DNA of 64,000 nucleotides from a bacterium (GTDB lineage Bacteria; RBG-13-61-14; DATKZS01): the NCBI GenBank assembly GCA_963674965.2, contig CAXXFL010000002.1, forward strand, positions 288,001 to 352,000. Direction: 5' to 3'. Numbering within the stretch: the stretch's first letter is position 1; each line of letters opens with the position of its first letter. Of the stretch, positions 37,947 to 45,938 are shown one piece after another. The notes under the pieces are model-generated. The model worked only from the letters and a program-made list of their open reading frames with translations, did not search any database and was not told where the DNA came from. The position numbers and the translations under genes are program-made.

Positions 37947-38963
37947 TCAGTCGGCGGCGCAGCGGAACCCCAAGCTGCGGCTCCTGCTGATCGGATTATA
38001 ATAGTGCCGGAACGACACGCGGGTGTTTATCAAATTGCCGTACCAGTAGCCGCCGCGCACCACGCGGGCCGCTCCCGTCGAGGGGCCGGGAGGGTCGTTG
38101 ACGATATCGTTGTCAACGCAGTACTGGTAGTAAGCGTCCGAATACCACTCGGCCGTCCACTCGAAAACGTTTCCCGTCATGTCGTAAAGACCATAGCCGT
38201 TAGGCCGATAGCTCTCCACCCGGTGAGTGTCGTTTTCCAAACCGTTGAAATCCCAGCAATAGCCCGCTGAAGTCAATCTTCCGTAACAGGCATCGGAACA
38301 TATCAGCAGGTTTCCGTGAGGATACCTGTAGCCATCCAGTCCTCCCCTGCCGGCGTACTCCCATTCAGCCTCCGTGGGAAGCCTTTTTTCGGCCCAGGCG
38401 CAGTAAGCCGCGGCCTGGTACCAGTTCACGAAAAGAACGGGAAAATCATCATAGTCGGGATTGCCGTAATAGTCGGTCCGTGTCCAACTGCCCAACGAGT
38501 TGGGCAGAGTGCACTCGCCGTCATTTACACAAGCGGCGTACTCGGCGTTAGTCGCCTCGTGTTTATCCATATAAAAATCGTAGGTGATGCAAACGCTATG
38601 CACCGGCAGTTCATCCGCTATACCTTCATTGAAGTGGTCCCCCATGTCAAAACAGCCTGAAGGGACCAACGCCATGTTATCGAGAGCGCACTCTCTGGCC
38701 TCATCAATCTCCCCGTATCCATCGTCTCCGGGACATTGGTTGTCATGGCCGTCGCAAAGTTCCCTGGCCCCGGGGTATACCGCCGAGTCGCCGTCGTCAC
38801 AGTCCACCGAGGTTCCGCATCCCCGCAGGTTGTAAAAACCGTCACCGTCGGCGTCTGAACATTCCTTTCCACAATCGCATTTGCAATCATAAGGACCCGT
38901 TTCGCATCCAACGGCAAGGAGTAAGGATAAAAAAAGAATGGCGATGAATATTGTCTTTTTCAA
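37947..38963 (-). CDS. Lipoprotein with MopE-like repeat and FGE-sulfatase (CLec) domain
   Basis: AVGC lipobox; [32 protein letters not shown]. Confidence 0.88.
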   Translation of the reverse strand: MKKTIFIAILFLSLLLAVGCETGPYDCKCDCGKECSDADGDGFYNLRGCGTSVDCDDGDSAVYPGARELCDGHDNQCPGDDGYGEIDEARECALDNMALVPSGCFDMGDHFNEGIADELPVHSVCITYDFYMDKHEATNAEYAACVNDGECTLPNSLGSWTRTDYYGNPDYDDFPVLFVNWYQAAAYCAWAEKRLPTEAEWEYAGRGGLDGYRYPHGNLLICSDACYGRLTSAGYCWDFNGLENDTHRVESYRPNGYGLYDMTGNVFEWTAEWYSDAYYQYCVDNDIVNDPPGPSTGAARVVRGGYWYGNLINTRVSFRHYYNPISRSRSLGFRCAAD

Positions 38964-39469: not shown

Positions 39470-39779
39470 AAAGGCGTTGGCTAAGGCCCCTTATATCTGG
39501 GGCCTGGTTCTTATAAATATTTATCCTTTGGCGGTCCTGGCCCAGGAGGAAGCGGCCAAGCCCAAGGCCAGTGCCGGCGGGTATCTTTTCAGCGTTTTAA
39601 TCGTTCTATTATTGGCCGTGATCGCGACGCTGGTAACGGCCCGCTTTTTATATAAGAAGCGAGTGGAGGAAAAGGAGAAGAGCCTCTCGAGATTCTTGCT
39701 TAACGACCCCGCCACGAGAGACTTCGTGCTGAAACAAAAAACTTCCCAGGCCCCAAAAAACCATCCCGAAAATGAGTGA
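39459..39779 (+). CDS. Small membrane protein
   Basis: Two hydrophobic segments; overlaps neighbouring genes as in an operon. Confidence 0.6.
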   Translation: MRIEKALAKAPYIWGLVLINIYPLAVLAQEEAAKPKASAGGYLFSVLIVLLLAVIATLVTARFLYKKRVEEKEKSLSRFLLNDPATRDFVLKQKTSQAPKNHPENE

Positions 39780-40482
39780 GCGCGCCGGCGGGGGCCTCGC
39801 TCCCGAGCTTCTGGCCATCTACGAGAAACTTCGCGGCCGCTTTGGCCATTTGAACTGGTGGCCGGGCGAGAGCCCTTTCGAGGTGATGGTCGGCGCCATC
39901 CTTACACAGAACACGGCCTGGACCAACGTGGAGAAGGCCATCGCCGCCCTTAAAGCCGACGGGTCGCTGGACGCCGAGTCGATCGCCAAAATGGACGTCA
40001 GAAAGCTGAGGCGACTCATCCGGTCCTCGGGCTACTACAATCAGAAGGCCGACAGGCTGAAGATATTCTCGAGGTTCTTTCTTGCCGCTCCATATTACGG
40101 CTCCGCCGAGCGCATGGCCCAGGTGGAGATGGAGGAAATGAGACAAATCCTTCTTTCCATAAAAGGGATCGGACCGGAAACGGCGGACTCTATCCTGCTT
40201 TACGCTCTCGATAAACGGTCCTTCGTGGTGGACGCCTATACGAGGAGGATTTTCGCGAGGCTCGGCTATCTGCCCGACGGCGTAAGCTACGAGAACGCTC
40301 GAGAATTCTTCACCAGGAACCTGCCTCGGGACCTGGAACTGTATAACGACTTCCACGCCCAGATAGTCTACCTGGGCAAGGATTACTGCCGGCCAAAGCC
40401 CCGGTGCGAGGATTGCCCACTGGCTAAATGCAAGGGAAGCATAATCCTGGAGAAAGAGGAGCGACGCAAAAAAGGCAAATGA
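39772..40482 (+). CDS. Endonuclease III-related HhH-GPD DNA glycosylase
   Basis: GAILTQNT, KGIGPETAD, VVDAYT and C-terminal C..C..CP...C motifs. Confidence 0.9.
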   Translation: MSERAGGGLAPELLAIYEKLRGRFGHLNWWPGESPFEVMVGAILTQNTAWTNVEKAIAALKADGSLDAESIAKMDVRKLRRLIRSSGYYNQKADRLKIFSRFFLAAPYYGSAERMAQVEMEEMRQILLSIKGIGPETADSILLYALDKRSFVVDAYTRRIFARLGYLPDGVSYENAREFFTRNLPRDLELYNDFHAQIVYLGKDYCRPKPRCEDCPLAKCKGSIILEKEERRKKGK

Positions 40483-40547
40483 GCGCCGGGCTTGACAATG
40501 GGCCGAGGCGGCCACATGCTGTAGTGAAAGGGTCGAGGAGTACAATA

Positions 40548-40898
40548 ATGCATGAAATGGGCATCGCCATGCAGATCATGAACATCGTGAACCAGAGCCT
40601 TCCCCCCGGCGAGGACTTGAGGATCAAGTCCATCACCTTGAAGGTGGGCAAGCTGACGGCCATCGTTCCCGGGTCCCTTCGCTTCTGCATGGAGGTGGTG
40701 ACCAAGGACACCCCGGCCGAGGGGGCCGAGATTGTGTTTAACGAGGTCCCGGTCGAGGTCGAGTGCGACTCCTGCGGCCAAAAGTCCATCATCGAGGAAC
40801 CGCCCTTTTCCTGCCGGTCCTGCGGGGGCGACAAGATAGCGATACTCAGCGGCCGGGAAATGATAGTCGAGTCCATCGAGGTGGAGGGCTCGGGCTAG
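40548..40898 (+). CDS. hypA: Hydrogenase maturation nickel chaperone HypA
   Basis: MHE start and two CxxC motifs. Confidence 0.93.
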   Translation: MHEMGIAMQIMNIVNQSLPPGEDLRIKSITLKVGKLTAIVPGSLRFCMEVVTKDTPAEGAEIVFNEVPVEVECDSCGQKSIIEEPPFSCRSCGGDKIAILSGREMIVESIEVEGSG

Positions 40899-40954
40899 TC
40901 CAGGAATGACCGGGCGGCAGCCATATTTAGGGAAAAAAGATCGAGAGGATAAAG

Positions 40955-41677
40955 ATGCATAAAGACCATTCGCACAAGGACCACTCTCACGGCGAGGGGG
41001 CGAGACGCATCCAGGTGGCGCAGGACGTTCTCGGGCTGAACGACAGGCTGGCCCAGGCCAACCGCCGGGAATTCGCCGACCTCGGGCTTTTCGTGCTTAA
41101 CGTCATGAGCTCGCCCGGCTCGGGCAAGACGACCATCTTGACCGAGACCCTGAAGAAGCTCCATCACGAGATCAACATGGGCGTGGTGGTGGGAGACATA
41201 TGCACCACCAACGACGCCGACCGCCTGAGCCTGAACAACCACATCCCCGTGGTCCAGATTTGCACGGACAACTTCGGGGGCGACTGCCACCTGGCGGCGC
41301 ACGTGGTCAAGGACGCGGCCTCCGGTCTCGACCTCGCCTCCCTGGACGTCCTGATCGTGGAGAACATCGGCAACCTCGTGTGCCCGGCCGAGTTCGACGT
41401 GGGGGAGGACAAGAGGGTGGTGGTGCTTTCAGTCACCGAGGGCGAGGACAAGCCCGCCAAGTATCCGCTCATGTTCCGCGTGTGTGACGTGGCCATCCTC
41501 AATAAAATTGACCTCCTTCCCTACCTGGACTACGACAAGGACCTGGCCATAAAGTATATCAAGGATGTTCATTCCGACATGCCCATCTTCGAGACCTCCG
41601 CCAAAACGGGCGAGGGCATGGAAAAGTGGTACGAGTGGATACTGGACCAGGTAAAGGCGAAAAAGGCCGCCAAATAA
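40955..41677 (+). CDS. hypB: Nickel-incorporation GTPase HypB
   Basis: His-rich N-terminus; SSPGSGKT, CHL, ENIGNLVCPAEFD and NKID motifs. Confidence 0.95.
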   Translation: MHKDHSHKDHSHGEGARRIQVAQDVLGLNDRLAQANRREFADLGLFVLNVMSSPGSGKTTILTETLKKLHHEINMGVVVGDICTTNDADRLSLNNHIPVVQICTDNFGGDCHLAAHVVKDAASGLDLASLDVLIVENIGNLVCPAEFDVGEDKRVVVLSVTEGEDKPAKYPLMFRVCDVAILNKIDLLPYLDYDKDLAIKYIKDVHSDMPIFETSAKTGEGMEKWYEWILDQVKAKKAAK

Positions 41678-41710
41678 GAAGACGCGAAATTTTTGGGAAA
41701 GAGAAAGATC

Positions 41711-41734
41711 AAGGCCGGAGATTACTCCGGCCTT
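41711..41734. terminator. Hairpin between convergent hypB and micropeptide gene
   Basis: AAGGCCGGAG-ATTA-CTCCGGCCTT perfect 10-bp stem. Confidence 0.6.
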
Positions 41735-41768
41735 ATATCCTTGCGCCCTGGGCGCCGATTAAAATGTT

Positions 41769-41825
41769 TTAGCAGGAGCTTTTGCACTTGCAAAGACCGG
41801 TTTTCTTTTTCTCTACTTTCTTCAT
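41769..41825 (-). CDS. 18-aa Lys/Cys-rich micropeptide MKKVEKKKTGLCKCKSSC
   Basis: AAGGAGG 7 nt before ATG, consensus promoter upstream, hairpin downstream. Confidence 0.65.
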   Translation of the reverse strand: MKKVEKKKTGLCKCKSSC

Positions 41826-41876
41826 TTTTCGTCCTCCTTTAAGGTTTGTAATCTTTTATATTTCCCATTGATAGAG

Positions 41877-41904
41877 ATTATATCTTCGCCTGAAGAAATG
41901 TCAA
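41877..41904 (-). promoter_or_regulatory. Consensus sigma70 promoter of the micropeptide gene
   Basis: TTGACA-N16-TATAAT. Confidence 0.7.
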
Positions 41905-42154
41905 GCAAAAACAGCCACTTAGCACATATTAATTCAAAATAACACTCGCCATGAACGGCATTTTCGTGGCACTTTACGGCGCGTGATAAAGCGCTATTCT
42001 ATAAGCTGTTTTTTAACGGAAGGCCATAATGTTCAATTATTGTAAGTATTATCGTGTTATCGCGTTGATTCTTTGCGTCCATCAAGATATAATGACCGTT
42101 AGAAAGCGATCCGTCATTAAGGCAAAAACACTCGATATGAAGGGATGCATTATC

Positions 42155-43174
42155 ATGGGTACGGCGCGAACGACTTCCATTCTTTTGGCTCTTTTATTAA
42201 TCATGGCCTCTTGTCCGACCTACTCCCTCGCCGATGGACCCGAGGCCAAGCAGGAGATATTCCCCGGCCAAGCCGAGCCCATCTTGTCCGAGTTGATAAT
42301 GAAGGCTTTCAACCTGGCCTTGAAGCGCGATTACGACGGGGCCAAGGCGGCCTGCCTCGAGCTGGGCGAGGCCCTTCCCCAGGACCCGAGCGGTCCCACC
42401 GGCGAGATGGTCCTTTACCAGGTGATGATGCTCGAGAACGAGGACTACGAGCTGGACGCCGAGTTCAGGGACGCGGCCGGGCGGGCCGAGGAAAGGTCAA
42501 AGGTCTTCGTGAAAAAGGCGGAGAAAAACGACTGGTATTATACACTCCTGGGCGCGAGCTGGGGCATCCAGGGAATATACTACTTGAGGCAGGACGAGTA
42601 TTTCAGCGGCCTCTATTACGGGTTTAGGGGCCTGTCCTACATGCGGACCGCGGCCGAGATGAGCCCGGACAACTGGGAAGCCAAGATGGGGATAGGCGTG
42701 TTCCTGTATTACCGCTCGGCCCTGGCCTCGATTTTTCCCGCGCCCTGGCTCGACCAGCGCGAGCGGGGCATCGAGATGGTCAGGCGAGCGGGCGAGGAGC
42801 GCGAGTACCTGGACGAGGTCAGCCGCATAGCTCTCAGCTATATCTACTATAACGAAAAGGACTACGACAAGACGGCCTCCTACATGGACGACCTCATATC
42901 GGAGCGTCCCTATTTCCCCATTTTCTACCACTTGGCCGGGCGGGCCATGATGGCCAAGGGAGATTACCAGAGGGCCTACGATTATTACGACGCCATGAGG
43001 AAGACCGACCCCGGCCTGTACCTCCCCTACCTGCGCCTGGCCGACATCTCGGAGAAGATGGGCAACAACGGCGCGGCTCGCGAGTGGCTCGATTTGTTCT
43101 ACCAGACCCTGGGCAAAAGGAAAAGCTCCCACCTGGAGGAGGCCGCGGACCTCAAGAAAAAACTGGCCGAATAA
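42155..43174 (+). CDS. Exported TPR-repeat protein
   Basis: Signal-like N-terminus and TPR-like helical pattern. Confidence 0.75.
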   Translation: MGTARTTSILLALLLIMASCPTYSLADGPEAKQEIFPGQAEPILSELIMKAFNLALKRDYDGAKAACLELGEALPQDPSGPTGEMVLYQVMMLENEDYELDAEFRDAAGRAEERSKVFVKKAEKNDWYYTLLGASWGIQGIYYLRQDEYFSGLYYGFRGLSYMRTAAEMSPDNWEAKMGIGVFLYYRSALASIFPAPWLDQRERGIEMVRRAGEEREYLDEVSRIALSYIYYNEKDYDKTASYMDDLISERPYFPIFYHLAGRAMMAKGDYQRAYDYYDAMRKTDPGLYLPYLRLADISEKMGNNGAAREWLDLFYQTLGKRKSSHLEEAADLKKKLAE

Positions 43175-43379
43175 AAACGCGGGGGGGAGGGGGATTTTTC
43201 CAAGTGGAAGAATCTTCATCATGGAAAGGCTTATCAAATGTTCTTTTATAAGGCTTACATATGAAAAGAATTTAATGTTGACGATCTTCAGCTAAAATGC
43301 TAGCTTTAAATTGGTATTTTTCATCCAGAGTTGCATCAATGCTAGGCTAAACTTGAAGGCTAAGGGCAAGGAGAGAAAA

Positions 43380-45938
43380 ATGAAAAGTTCTAAAATTCTT
43401 CAATTCTCAGCAATCGCCTTGATGATGGCGCTTGTATCTATCATTTCAATCCCCACCGCTCAAGCTGCCACCTGCGGCGTAAGCGTTTGCGGCGACGGCA
43501 TCCTTGATCCAGGCGAGGAATGCGATGACGGCAACCTGTCGCTTGGAGACGGCTGCTCGGCTGACTGCACCGAAAGTTTCGACATGCAAGTTGGGAGCGC
43601 TCTGTTTTCCTATTCAGGCGAGCATCCGAGGGACATGGTCTCCGGTGACTTGAATAACGACGGGATAGTTGATTTCGTGGTCACAACATACCGCGGAGCC
43701 TCCATGTATACCTACCTAGTTAATCAAAACGGCTCCATCACCCAGGCGGGTCATTATTCATTGGGATCTAACACCTGCGCCATCGCGGGAGGAAACCTGA
43801 ATGGTGATCATTTCCTGGACGTGGCTACCGTCGATTGCGACACGGACCAACTATTTGTGTTTTTCGGGAACGGCGACGGGACCATGACCCTGGCGGACGT
43901 CTATATTCCCGGAGAGCGCCCCATGAACGCGAAGATAGGCGACGTCAATAACGACGGTTATGGAGACATCATAGCCGGGTGCCTGATAAGCCGCGGCTTC
44001 CGCGTTTATTATGGCGATGGCCATGGAGGCTTTCCCTCCAGTGAGTTTATTTCAACCAACGCCACAGGAAATCCCACCACGGAGGCGCGCGATCTGAATG
44101 GCGACGGATATAACGACCTTGTCCATGGAGCGCACGACAGAAACGGAGGAGAACCCTTTTTTGGTATCTTGATGGGCATAAACGACGGCTTCTCCATCAG
44201 CCAGACTTTCAACTCTCCCTTCAGGGCACAAAACGCGAACGCTCTGGATCTTAACAATGACGGGTATCCGGATTTGGCCGTTTACGCCTCTGTCGATGGG
44301 CCCTCATGGTCGGCGGCGACTATACTTCGCGCCATGATAAACCAGGGAGACGGCTCGTTCTCCATAGGCCAGGAGATAAACACCGGCGATCAAGGCCACC
44401 GAATGGCGAAAGGCGACCTCAACAACGACGGAGAAACGGACATTGTCATGACCTCAAGATATTCCTCTCAACCGGCCGCGAGAGTTTTTCGAGGGGATGG
44501 CGTCGGTTTCTTCAAATCCGAGATCAGATATAATATGAGCACTGACGTCCTTGGAGTCGCCGTAGTGGACATTAATAACGACGGCCTTCCAGACGTCCTT
44601 TCATCGATAGCCGATCACTATAAAGTCGTTCCCACCTTCAACCACAACTACTACCAGTTCCCCGTCTGCGGCGACTTCCGCATCGGGCGGGGCGAGAACT
44701 GCGACGACGGGAACACGGCGGACGGCGACGGGTGCTCGGCCATCTGCCGGCTCGAGGCCACGGGCGACACGGACAGGGACGGACTGACCGACGGCGAGGA
44801 GACGGGGATTTATTACACCGACCCGCTTAATCCCGACACGGACGGGGACTGCGTGTTCGACGGGGAGGAGGTCTGCTCGGGGGCCGACCCGCTCGACCCC
44901 TCCGACCAGGAAGGCTGCCGGCAAATAGTCACCCCCAGCGGCGAGTGGAAGATCAAGGCCACCCTGCTCGAGGCCTCGGCCGCCCTCTCCTCCGAGGTCT
45001 GGATTTCCGAGCCCATCGAGGAGCGCCTTATCAAAAACAGCTTGAAGCACGTGGGCAAGGTGGTGACCACCACCGTGCTCTCGGGCGAGACGGTGAACTT
45101 CTTCATCCGGGTCCACGCCGAGTCCTGGGGCCTTGGCGTTTACGACCACTACTCGGACTCGATGTACGCCCGCGTGTCGCGCCAGGACGCCTTTACCTAC
45201 ACCATCGGCTTCGAGGACCTTCCCGTGGGCCAGTCGGACTGGGACTTCGATGACCTGGTCCTCCTGGTCGAGTTCATCCCGGCCGAGGCGGCGCCCGGCG
45301 TTGCGCGGAACTCCATGGACGAATACGAGGTCTCGACGGCCAACCAGGCGGGGAGCCGCGCCCTGGATTCCTCCACCGTCTTCGCCGAGCTTAATTTCGA
45401 CGGGTACGCCTCGATCGAGATTTCCGGCGCGGCCATCTCCGGCGACGCGGCGGTGGTTCTCACGGCTGGCCTCGCCGAGAAGTACTCGGACCTTCCCTCC
45501 CCCACGCCGGGCTATTTCGGGGAGTTCAAAAAGGTCCTTCTCACGAACGGCCAGACCGACCTTGGCGGGGTCAACGGGACGATCGTCATCTCTTACAAGG
45601 ACGAGGACGACGACGGCGTTGTTGACGGCACGACGGCCGCCGAGGACAACCTGGTCGTTTACCGCTACGACGAGGACTCCCAGGACTGGGTCCAGCTCAT
45701 CACGAACAAGGACGGTGACGGCAACCTGGTGGCGGGCGTGACGGACAAGGCTTCCCTTTTCGCGGTCGGCTCGAGGTACTCCCCCGGCGGAAGCGTTAAC
45801 CTCAGTTGCATGATGAGCGACGCATCGAGCTGGAGCGCCAGGGACTTCTTCGGCAACGCGGCGGTGTTTTTCATCGTCATTCTGGCCCTGACGCTGGTGA
45901 GAAAAGGGGCCGCGAAGAAGGAGACCAAAGCGGGCTAG
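43380..45938 (+). CDS. Large surface protein with Cys-rich CGDG..EECDDGN repeats, FG-GAP repeats, DUF4114-like domain and C-terminal TM anchor
   Basis: GDLNNDG repeats, GFEDL...DWDFDDLV motif, hydrophobic tail followed by basic residues. Confidence 0.85.
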   Translation: MKSSKILQFSAIALMMALVSIISIPTAQAATCGVSVCGDGILDPGEECDDGNLSLGDGCSADCTESFDMQVGSALFSYSGEHPRDMVSGDLNNDGIVDFVVTTYRGASMYTYLVNQNGSITQAGHYSLGSNTCAIAGGNLNGDHFLDVATVDCDTDQLFVFFGNGDGTMTLADVYIPGERPMNAKIGDVNNDGYGDIIAGCLISRGFRVYYGDGHGGFPSSEFISTNATGNPTTEARDLNGDGYNDLVHGAHDRNGGEPFFGILMGINDGFSISQTFNSPFRAQNANALDLNNDGYPDLAVYASVDGPSWSAATILRAMINQGDGSFSIGQEINTGDQGHRMAKGDLNNDGETDIVMTSRYSSQPAARVFRGDGVGFFKSEIRYNMSTDVLGVAVVDINNDGLPDVLSSIADHYKVVPTFNHNYYQFPVCGDFRIGRGENCDDGNTADGDGCSAICRLEATGDTDRDGLTDGEETGIYYTDPLNPDTDGDCVFDGEEVCSGADPLDPSDQEGCRQIVTPSGEWKIKATLLEASAALSSEVWISEPIEERLIKNSLKHVGKVVTTTVLSGETVNFFIRVHAESWGLGVYDHYSDSMYARVSRQDAFTYTIGFEDLPVGQSDWDFDDLVLLVEFIPAEAAPGVARNSMDEYEVSTANQAGSRALDSSTVFAELNFDGYASIEISGAAISGDAAVVLTAGLAEKYSDLPSPTPGYFGEFKKVLLTNGQTDLGGVNGTIVISYKDEDDDGVVDGTTAAEDNLVVYRYDEDSQDWVQLITNKDGDGNLVAGVTDKASLFAVGSRYSPGGSVNLSCMMSDASSWSARDFFGNAAVFFIVILALTLVRKGAAKKETKAG

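Follow-up and report, generated by a model that had tools for sequence, protein, structure and literature searches.

An 18-residue lysine- and cysteine-rich peptide encoded by a stand-alone micro-gene is probably the substrate of a radical SAM/SPASM maturase

The window analyzed here is a stretch of 64,000 nucleotides (positions 288,001 to 352,000 of contig CAXXFL010000002.1, assembly GCA_963674965.2), and between its positions 41711 and 41904 the minus strand carries a micro-gene for an 18-residue peptide, MKKVEKKKTGLCKCKSSC. The peptide has a lysine-rich N-terminal half and ends in C-K-C-x-x-S-C, its three cysteines being spaced as C-x-C-x3-C. We conclude that it is probably the substrate of a maturase of the radical S-adenosylmethionine (SAM)/SPASM class, as the precursor of a peptide that is made on ribosomes and modified post-translationally (RiPP) or of a peptide-derived cofactor. 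An earlier note, made from the letters of the window, had proposed a RiPP-type precursor or a metal-binding peptide, and both possibilities are weighed below.

Relatives of the peptide were collected by scanning genome contigs with a degenerate DNA pattern for G-x-C-K-C-K-x-[ST]-C-stop, which gave at least 117 matches, against roughly 9 estimated for chance at equal base frequencies. The counts that follow refer to the matches listed. Complete open reading frames (ORFs) made up 108 of the 117, exactly 20 residues long in 101 of the 108, and 7 matches appeared to be due to chance. The canonical peptide reads M-K-I-K-K-V-x-K-x3-G-L-C-K-C-x-x-S-C-stop, and its N-terminus, which the pattern left free, was conserved as M-[KT]-I-[KR]-K-[VI]-x-[KR], with synonymous codon changes. 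There were 97 distinct DNA versions with three different stop codons at the same position (TAA 38, TGA 37, TAG 22), and 107 of the 108 complete relatives had a Shine-Dalgarno-like motif 5' of the start. Judged by record titles, most hosts belong to the Thermodesulfobacteriota (Desulfobacterales, Syntrophaceae, Desulfomonile, Desulfarculaceae, Geobacteraceae and Desulfobacca), and there is also one Nitrospinota metagenome-assembled genome (MAG). Since divergent peptides linked to the enzyme carry CKCHSSC, CKCASSC or TCKCKASC, the invariant core of the family is the C-terminal C-K-C-x-x-S-C. The 18-residue form found in the bacterial family of the window (the host family) appears to be the canonical form minus two residues, its ATG aligning with the canonical Ile3.

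These results bear on the possibility that the micro-ORF is non-functional, either a chance ORF within a small non-coding RNA or an attenuation leader peptide. Such an explanation would fit the very short length of the ORF and the silence of gene callers, none of 10 exact 20-residue sequences of relatives being present in a collection of 15 billion proteins. It is contradicted by the synonymous changes and the three stop codons at one position, by the nearly constant Shine-Dalgarno-like motif, and by an Rfam scan of window positions 40000-44000, which returned no match at E<=1. As for attenuation, hypB is convergent with the peptide gene, so nothing downstream on the same strand could be attenuated. 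We regard a non-functional ORF as highly improbable.

The linkage of the peptide gene to a radical SAM enzyme was scored by blastp in 74 peptide genes from loci longer than 2 kb, using proteins of the host genome as queries and counting same-strand radical SAM orthologs in the flank that scored 150 bits or more. Such an ortholog was found in 61 of the 74 loci. In 33 of these a split pair, a Cys-rich protein and the radical SAM protein, lay downstream of the peptide gene, 21 had a fused enzyme downstream (about 505 residues), and in 7 the radical SAM gene was directly upstream, without the Cys-rich part. A Cys-rich ORF alone was seen in another 6 of the 74 loci, with the sequence ending less than 1 kb downstream in 5 of them, and neither enzyme nor Cys-rich ORF was seen in the last 7. 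NCBIfam scans of flanking ORFs likewise showed radical SAM/SPASM-like proteins adjoining the peptide gene, none of them over any family cut-off.

The host genome (G000) has its own enzyme pair about 51 kb from the peptide gene, outside the window. Its radical SAM protein has 386 residues and shares 44% identity (E 4e-110) with the fused enzyme of locus L063. An overlapping ORF upstream of the radical SAM gene encodes a 138-residue protein with eight cysteines, which matches the N-terminal part of the same fused enzyme at 28% identity (E 3e-13). The genes at this locus are, in order, UPF0047, the Cys-rich protein, the radical SAM enzyme, a 109-residue membrane protein and an S15 peptidase; the first four were kept in all 4 relatives of the host family and the S15 peptidase was seen in 2 of the 4, within the limits of the flanks. 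The genes other than the enzyme pair were not seen in this position beyond the host family. At a distance of about 51 kb the micro-gene would be an unlinked, separately transcribed precursor gene, and linkage holds across the peptide family but not at the window's own locus; in the sister-family genome G011 the two genes lie about 0.7 kb apart. The earlier remark that no modifying enzyme is adjacent was therefore right for the window, but the genome does encode an orthologous enzyme pair elsewhere.

The presence of peptide and enzyme was compared across genomes. Among 13 genomes of the host phylum, a hidden Markov model (HMM) of the peptide was positive in 6 (G000-G004 and G011; E 5.5e-8 in the host genome), the sister-family genome G011 carrying the 20-residue form MKIRKVKKTSKGLCKCKDSC. 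A match in G010 (E 0.58) lay inside a longer frame and was set aside as chance. The same 6 genomes, and none of the remaining 7, contained the radical SAM ortholog (E<=1e-30). A sample of 301 genomes from the G041 phylum (peptide E<=1e-3, enzyme E<=1e-40) had the peptide in 28 cases and the enzyme in 34, all 28 falling within the 34, and 267 genomes had neither. Of the 6 genomes with the enzyme only, 5 had divergent peptides beside it, such as MKIKKVTKTKSKMCKCHSSC and MRIKKVLKRWATTCKCKASC. Among 5 genomes holding peptide copies without an adjacent enzyme, 4 had the enzyme elsewhere. The precursor proposed in the earlier note thus gains from the 61 linked loci and from this shared pattern of presence and absence, which together suggest that the peptide is modified.

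The class of the enzyme was examined by motif, profile and predicted structure. The host enzyme contains a CX3CX2C motif (C-S-L-K-C-R-H-C) and a CX2CX5CX3C motif (C-A-D-C-R-V-V-D-E-C-G-G-G-C), and Pfam gave Radical_SAM at 71 bits (cut-off 29.5) and Fer4_12 at 26.9 bits. The fused L063 enzyme was modeled with AlphaFold from a 26-row alignment, giving a pLDDT of 87.4 and a pTM of 0.85. Foldseek and VIA-align placed RiPP maturases first among its structural matches, with SuiB at Z 25.6, SkfB at Z 24.9 and anSME at Z 23.1, followed by CteB (Z 22.8/22.4), ChlB (Z 22.4) and PqqE (Z 20.3). The protein is a radical SAM enzyme by its motif, its Pfam score and the alignment of the model to radical SAM barrels at Z >20; its SPASM domain is assigned from the motif and the predicted fold, which aligns to the C-terminus with SuiB and anSME, and not from a Pfam threshold. 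The SuiB alignment joined model residues 127-502 to chain residues 2-439 over 346 residues at 15% identity, and included the N-terminal peptide-binding domain of SuiB. Model residues 126-193, a beta-sheet with helices before the barrel, fall inside this alignment from SuiB residue 2 and are predicted to form a domain like the RiPP recognition element (RRE), with a putative role in leader binding. Sequence searches of the PDB matched only SkfB (E 2.4e-9) and PqqE (E 3.8e-7).

No curated family claimed the enzyme, its best NCBIfam scores being 75-89 bits against cut-offs of 350-650. The enzyme family comprises at least 2085 sequence clusters at E<=1e-40, with generic names throughout. The eight-cysteine N-terminal domain matched no Pfam family, and in the ESM Atlas it resembled only clusters of hypothetical proteins from Nitrospirota and Thermodesulfobacteriota, which is a lead only.

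In the mechanism that we propose, the consensus sigma-70 promoter and the strong ribosome-binding site would yield an abundant peptide, and the RRE-like domain of the maturase would bind its Lys-rich N-terminal half (M-K-I-K-K-V-x-K, here two residues shorter). The radical SAM core and the SPASM auxiliary clusters would then modify the C-terminal C-K-C-x-x-S-C. The likeliest changes would be intramolecular cross-links of the thioether type at the cysteines, or cysteine oxidation or heterocyclization, the latter two as in anSME and SbtM (PMC9204691); C-terminal processing was also considered. Most carriers keep the peptide gene, a Cys-rich domain or protein of about 120-140 residues and the maturase in one compact cluster, and in the host family the peptide gene has moved away from the maturase cluster.

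Several points weigh against the peptide being a maturase substrate. The enzyme-positive genome G189 showed no peptide in the neighborhood of the enzyme (about 2 kb), and the Nitrospinota MAG G045 has four peptide copies and no radical SAM ortholog at E<=1e-30; either this MAG is incomplete or it uses the peptide without the radical SAM enzyme. Two of its four copies lie on one 2.6-kb contig (L099). The peptide and enzyme genes are unlinked in the host genome and lie on different contigs in 4 relatives of the host family, so that their pairing here comes from co-occurrence only. As related genomes are not independent, the co-occurrence counts also overstate their support. On the enzyme side, Pfam SPASM reached 17.5 bits against a cut-off of 21.5, and a PqqD/RRE match was not found by Pfam in the host enzyme. 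The U-tract of the terminator of the micro-gene is interrupted (CUUUCUCUUUCCC).

Some of the same observations would suit a peptide that acts unmodified, as a stand-alone metal-binding micropeptide (a mini-metallothionein or a Ni/Zn accessory) in which three thiolates bind metal independently of the radical SAM enzyme. Three cysteines in C-x-C-x3-C together with a polybasic N-terminus, a promoter and terminator of its own with no adjacent enzyme, and the four copies in G045 without an enzyme ortholog all agree with this explanation. It is opposed by the strict co-occurrence in the same 6 of 13 genomes of the host phylum and by the enzyme-positive state of all 28 peptide-positive genomes among the 301. 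With Pfam and NCBIfam models at E<=10, 8 peptides matched no metallothionein family, although such models rarely detect peptides of 18-20 residues. We consider the unmodified metal peptide unlikely. It competes with a maturase substrate only if the peptide stays unmodified, as a metal-related role after modification would be compatible with one.

Another explanation keeps the radical SAM modification and adds cleavage and export, making the product a secreted antimicrobial or signaling RiPP similar to a bacteriocin. The architecture is indeed like that of sactipeptide and ranthipeptide systems, SkfB, CteB and SuiB are among the best structural matches, and the genes after the enzyme in the host family include one for an S15 peptidase and one for a small membrane protein. 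The cores of bacteriocins are typically variable, and here the core is near-invariant across phyla. The gene is single-copy in most genomes, there is no exporter or protease whose conservation extends past the family level, and the upstream neighbors vary. In 12 loci the sole recurrent ORF family 3' of the enzyme was a small His-tailed cupin, and the N-terminal 'leader' has about 11 residues without a recognizable cleavage motif. A bacteriocin-like product is accordingly judged improbable. For the modified peptide that we favor, it is more likely that the product serves its own cell, as a metal or redox peptide or a cofactor, because the core is near-invariant, the gene is usually single-copy, and there is no conserved exporter or protease.

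The system was compared with known radical SAM peptide systems. Sactipeptides (SkfA/SkfB, CteA/CteB) and ranthipeptides (SCIFF/PapB) similarly have a short Cys-containing precursor beside an RRE-radical SAM-SPASM enzyme, and their enzymes share the N-terminal peptide-recognition domain (predicted here), the CX3CX2C core and the C-terminal SPASM/twitch Fe-S domain. The scores were, however, far below the cut-offs, at about 60-80 bits against 625 for StsB-type sactisynthases and about 42-60 bits against 340 for PapB (NF047865). The present precursor also differs in having 18-20 residues and three cysteines, in ending with S-C-COOH and in a core that is near-invariant across phyla, and the system has an extra eight-cysteine N-terminal domain or protein and a precursor gene that is unlinked in the host genome. 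A SCIFF-type precursor has six cysteines in about 45 residues. With three cysteines in 18-20 residues and PapB below its cut-off, the peptide was not assigned to the SCIFF/ranthipeptides.

The thio(seleno)oxazole system SbtA/SbtM (TIGR04081/TIGR04082) belongs, like the present one, to anaerobes formerly placed in the Deltaproteobacteria. In Geobacter and related bacteria it consists of a short peptide and a radical SAM/SPASM enzyme of about 500 residues acting on cysteine (PMC9204691). One member of the peptide family matched SbtA weakly at its N-terminus (E 0.099, residues 1-14, 12.4 against 30.5 bits), which was the single weak match when 8 peptides were scanned with Pfam and NCBIfam at E<=10; no fitting model was found. 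SbtM was among the better matches to the core of the host enzyme, at 79.6 bits against a cut-off of 350. These scores lie far below the cut-offs, the peptide has the core G-L-C-K-C-K-S-S-C without a selenocysteine codon and without the GGUG/GGCG motif of that system (PMC9204691), and no SbtA or SbtM exceeded its cut-off when the host genome was scanned, so the pair was not placed in this system.

The streptide enzyme SuiB was the best overall structural match, with recognition domain, barrel and SPASM all covered. It differs in making a Lys-Trp cross-link, the present peptide having no Trp, and in its hosts, which are streptococci. Mycofactocin (MftA/B/C) and PQQ (PqqA/D/E) also start from a very short conserved precursor that is modified on the C-terminal side by an RRE-dependent radical SAM-SPASM enzyme, a route that would apply here as well, and their housekeeping-like rather than antibiotic-like role resembles the one proposed for this peptide. 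MftC (TIGR03962) was a frequent top NCBIfam match of the relatives (76-95 bits as such, and 53-95 bits across the relatives, against a cut-off of 265), and the PDB match to PqqE given above adds to the likeness with PQQ. Differences are the RRE being fused to the enzyme here, the lack of conserved downstream tailoring genes, and a peptide that ends in S-S-C with no C-terminal Gly-Val-Tyr or Glu...Tyr motif. The mycofactocin precursor ends in Gly-Val-Tyr, and MftC was not among the matches of the host enzyme at E<=1e-20, so mycofactocin was rejected as well. No prior mention of the peptide family was found in the literature collection searched, which yielded only general surveys.

The anatomy of the micro-gene was then compared with the earlier note (coordinates in Table 1). 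All elements of the transcription unit sit on the minus strand, and what the note had described was present: the perfect TTGACA-N16-TATAAT promoter, matching 12 of 12 consensus positions; AAGGAGG at 7-nt spacing before the 18-residue ORF; and the downstream hairpin, given there as 10 bp and found to have 11 pairs (10 Watson-Crick and 1 G-U; 7 G-C) with a loop of 4. The ORF was also, as claimed, below the size limit of gene callers, being too short for an ORF listing with a 20-residue floor. A promoter count at a loose scan threshold was uninformative by itself, since 2 sites were found in a 2.5-kb region against 1.6 +/- 1.3 in shuffles. Perfect TTGACA-N16-18-TATAAT sites, on the other hand, numbered 21 genome-wide (6.5 Mb, 58.3% GC) against 0.5 expected from base composition, and the micropeptide promoter is one of them. 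The extended terminator hairpin had a folding free energy (dG) of -33.4 kcal/mol and a z-score of -5.26, and none of 200 shuffles was equally stable. By DNA the locus is single-copy in the host genome. The micro-gene is a real, separately transcribed unit as read from its sequence, and we infer its transcription and expression from these signals.

Table 1 Positions of the micro-gene, of neighboring genes and of related loci (positions without a prefix are those of the window)
Feature	Position	Strand	Remarks
Upstream block	41905..41972	minus	conserved within the host family (GTGNCACGAA ... AATGYGTGCTAA ... GTTTTTNC); 5-locus alignment
GTGCTAA element	41925-41919	minus	within the upstream block
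-35 hexamer TTGACA	41904-41899	minus	consensus scan; invariant in 5/5 family loci
-10 hexamer TATAAT	41882-41877	minus	16-nt spacer to -35
5' untranslated region (UTR)	41826..41870	minus	about 45 nt; putative transcription start
Shine-Dalgarno site AAGGAGG	41839-41833	minus	7 nt (ACGAAAA) before ATG 41825
Micro-ORF	41769..41825	minus	18 codons (41825-41772) + TAA (41771-41769)
Terminator region	41704..41755	minus	5-bp hairpin (41755-41743) + main hairpin, then U-rich tail; between the convergent peptide gene and hypB
Main hairpin core	41735-41710	minus	
Extended hairpin fold	41742-41704	minus	
hypA	40428-40898	plus	convergent with the peptide gene
hypB	40955-41677	plus	convergent with the peptide gene
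TPR protein gene	42029-43174		divergent from the peptide gene
HhH-GPD glycosylase gene	39772-40482		overlapped by the hypA ORF
Formylglycine-generating-enzyme-like protein	37947-38963	minus	
FG-GAP/DUF4215 repeat protein	43311-45938	plus	
Enzyme pair of the host genome	G000:C2:380334-381894		about 51 kb from the peptide gene
Perfect-consensus promoter	C2:354782		just past the window end
Cupin-like ORF	L181:2450-2872		
Cupin-like ORF	L183:2805-3197		
Cupin-like ORF	L184:2431-2772		
Cupin-like ORF	L186:5605-5955	minus	
Cupin-like ORF	L192:5564-5914	minus	
Cupin-like ORF	L182:5248-5844	minus	
Cupin-like ORF	L191:2585-3283		
Cupin homolog of the host genome	G000:C4:363704-364042	minus	45-53% identity; four terminal His; other contig

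Conservation of the ORF in related genomes, which the earlier note had named as a check, was borne out. A DNA search covering 41 genomes (relatives and the host genome itself; E<=0.01) matched 10 genomes, with the ORF in the host genome and in 4 genomes of the same family only, and these were all 4 other genomes of the family in the set. The orthologous products are MKKVKKTKKGLCKCKSSC (twice), MKKLMKTKKGLCKCKSSC and MRKVRKAKRGMCKCKSSC, and in the 5-way alignment the CKCKSSC codons vary solely at synonymous third positions. The -35 box, the upstream block, the Shine-Dalgarno site and the ORF were conserved; the -10-like boxes of the orthologs read TATAAA, TATCTT or TATATT at the same spacing, and at the terminator position the 4 orthologous loci have differing hairpins followed by T-runs. 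The DNA matches in G006, G008, G014, G035 and G036 and the second match in G002 extended over no more than the Shine-Dalgarno/Lys-codon region or a small part of the query. Of these, the six read individually (L013, L014, L019-L021 and L023) were unrelated genes, and L016-L018 (from G014, G035 and G036) had no matching ORF.

In the 5 family genomes, conservation of the block upstream of the promoter exceeded that of the -10 box and that of the 5' UTR, with GTGCTAA and the T-run before the -35 box invariant across the 5 orthologous loci. In the window copy the block is split by an extra, hairpin-like insert (TGCCGTTCATGGCG). In a regulon search, the upstream motif combined with TTGAC occurred in the genome solely at the peptide promoter; the short core [CT]GTGCTAA[ACG] occurs 37 times without a visible pattern, and no regulon sharing the block emerged. 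The block may be an operator or a UP-like element. Many of the wider relatives have, in the 5' UTR, a short hairpin, rich in GC, directly before the Shine-Dalgarno site or overlapping it; its loop follows a conserved A-[U/C/G]-G-A-A, as in CCCCAUGAAGGGG or CUUUCAAGAAGAAAGGAGG (loci L033, L034, L036, L041, L044, L054, L069, L080, L087, L091, L112, L119, L135, L141 and L144, with variants in L043, L056, L064 and others). This loop-conserved hairpin is missing from the 5' UTR in the window, and in the relatives it might act on translation or stability.

The neighborhood of the peptide gene was examined for hints on its role, which the earlier note had linked to the nickel chaperones hypAB. As noted there, hypB converges on the peptide gene in the window, and this arrangement, which would suit an unmodified metal-binding peptide, recurs in G001. 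The association proved weak, being present in 2 of 5 family genomes, and 69 flanking ORFs from loci L031-L070 gave no hyp-family match, so that hyp genes are not conserved neighbors, which counts against that explanation. The TPR gene is divergent from the peptide gene in 3 of the 5 genomes, and the hypAB/TPR synteny was read as inherited gene order and not as a functional link.

In 12 further loci, covering 6 kb past the enzyme, a single downstream ORF family recurred, namely a same-strand ORF of 114-246 residues in 7 loci, with a cupin-like conserved C-terminal part and a His-rich tail, for example ...GGHxxGxEHHHHHH. Pfam Cupin_2 matched weakly, below its cut-off, in 4 of the 7 and not at all in 3. 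These His-tailed genes, found in other phyla, would also fit a metal-binding peptide that works unmodified; against it, only 2 of the host phylum's 6 peptide-positive genomes contain the cupin. With 2 of the 13 genomes of that phylum carrying it, the cupin is not an obligate partner. The host genome has one such homolog, and an 849-residue ORF before it was taken by eye for a glycyl-radical enzyme from its sequence. An ArsR-family regulator and an ArsP-type permease (PF03773, ArsP_1) were present 1-3 kb past the radical SAM gene in 3 of the 12 loci (L182, L183 and L184, from G058, G301 and G253; the Pfam scan was made on the L183 copies only). This neighborhood is a further point that suits an unmodified metal peptide, and it may reflect clade-level gene order or a metal(loid) link. 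The cupin, Ars and hyp neighbors are no more than circumstantial pointers to a metal-related function.

A more specific form of the maturase-substrate reading can be put forward tentatively, although we think it rather unlikely to hold in full. The product would be a metal-binding or redox cofactor matured by the radical SAM enzyme, with a housekeeping role in strict anaerobes of the Thermodesulfobacteriota, the host phylum, the Nitrospinota and their relatives. It would act with the eight-cysteine partner and often with a His-tailed cupin, its precursor gene would stand alone and be very strongly expressed beside hypAB in the host family, and it could be an O2-independent counterpart of the O2-dependent, cysteine-derived thiooxazole/thioamide metallophores.

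Neither gene callers nor the curated family libraries searched picked up the peptide family, which is widely distributed among the sulfate reducers and syntrophs driving the cycling of carbon and sulfur under anaerobic conditions. The enzyme clusters include proteins of cultured species, for example Desulfarculus baarsii and Desulfoferula mesophila. The pairing of the micro-gene with its distant enzyme would offer radical SAM enzymology a tiny, defined substrate of 18-20 residues. The pairing also suggests that RiPP-type precursors can lie tens of kilobases from their maturase, beyond the reach of genome mining based on neighborhood, and the product is possibly a new conserved peptide-derived cofactor or metal ligand of anaerobes.

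Other observations were made on the promoters and the surroundings of the micro-gene. Promoters of perfect consensus are about 40-fold enriched in the genome, one of them lying just past the window end, and several precede genes of RRM-type RNA-binding proteins. Six have no nearby ORF with a Shine-Dalgarno site, so they might drive small RNAs. The longest ORF of hypA has 156 residues, with the HypA domain at residues 41-152, and overlaps the HhH-GPD glycosylase gene; given these domain limits and the overlap, the true start is probably further downstream. A formylglycine-generating-enzyme-like protein with an N-terminal MopE-type putative metal-binding motif is encoded elsewhere in the window, and an 875-residue FG-GAP/DUF4215 repeat protein flanks the region.

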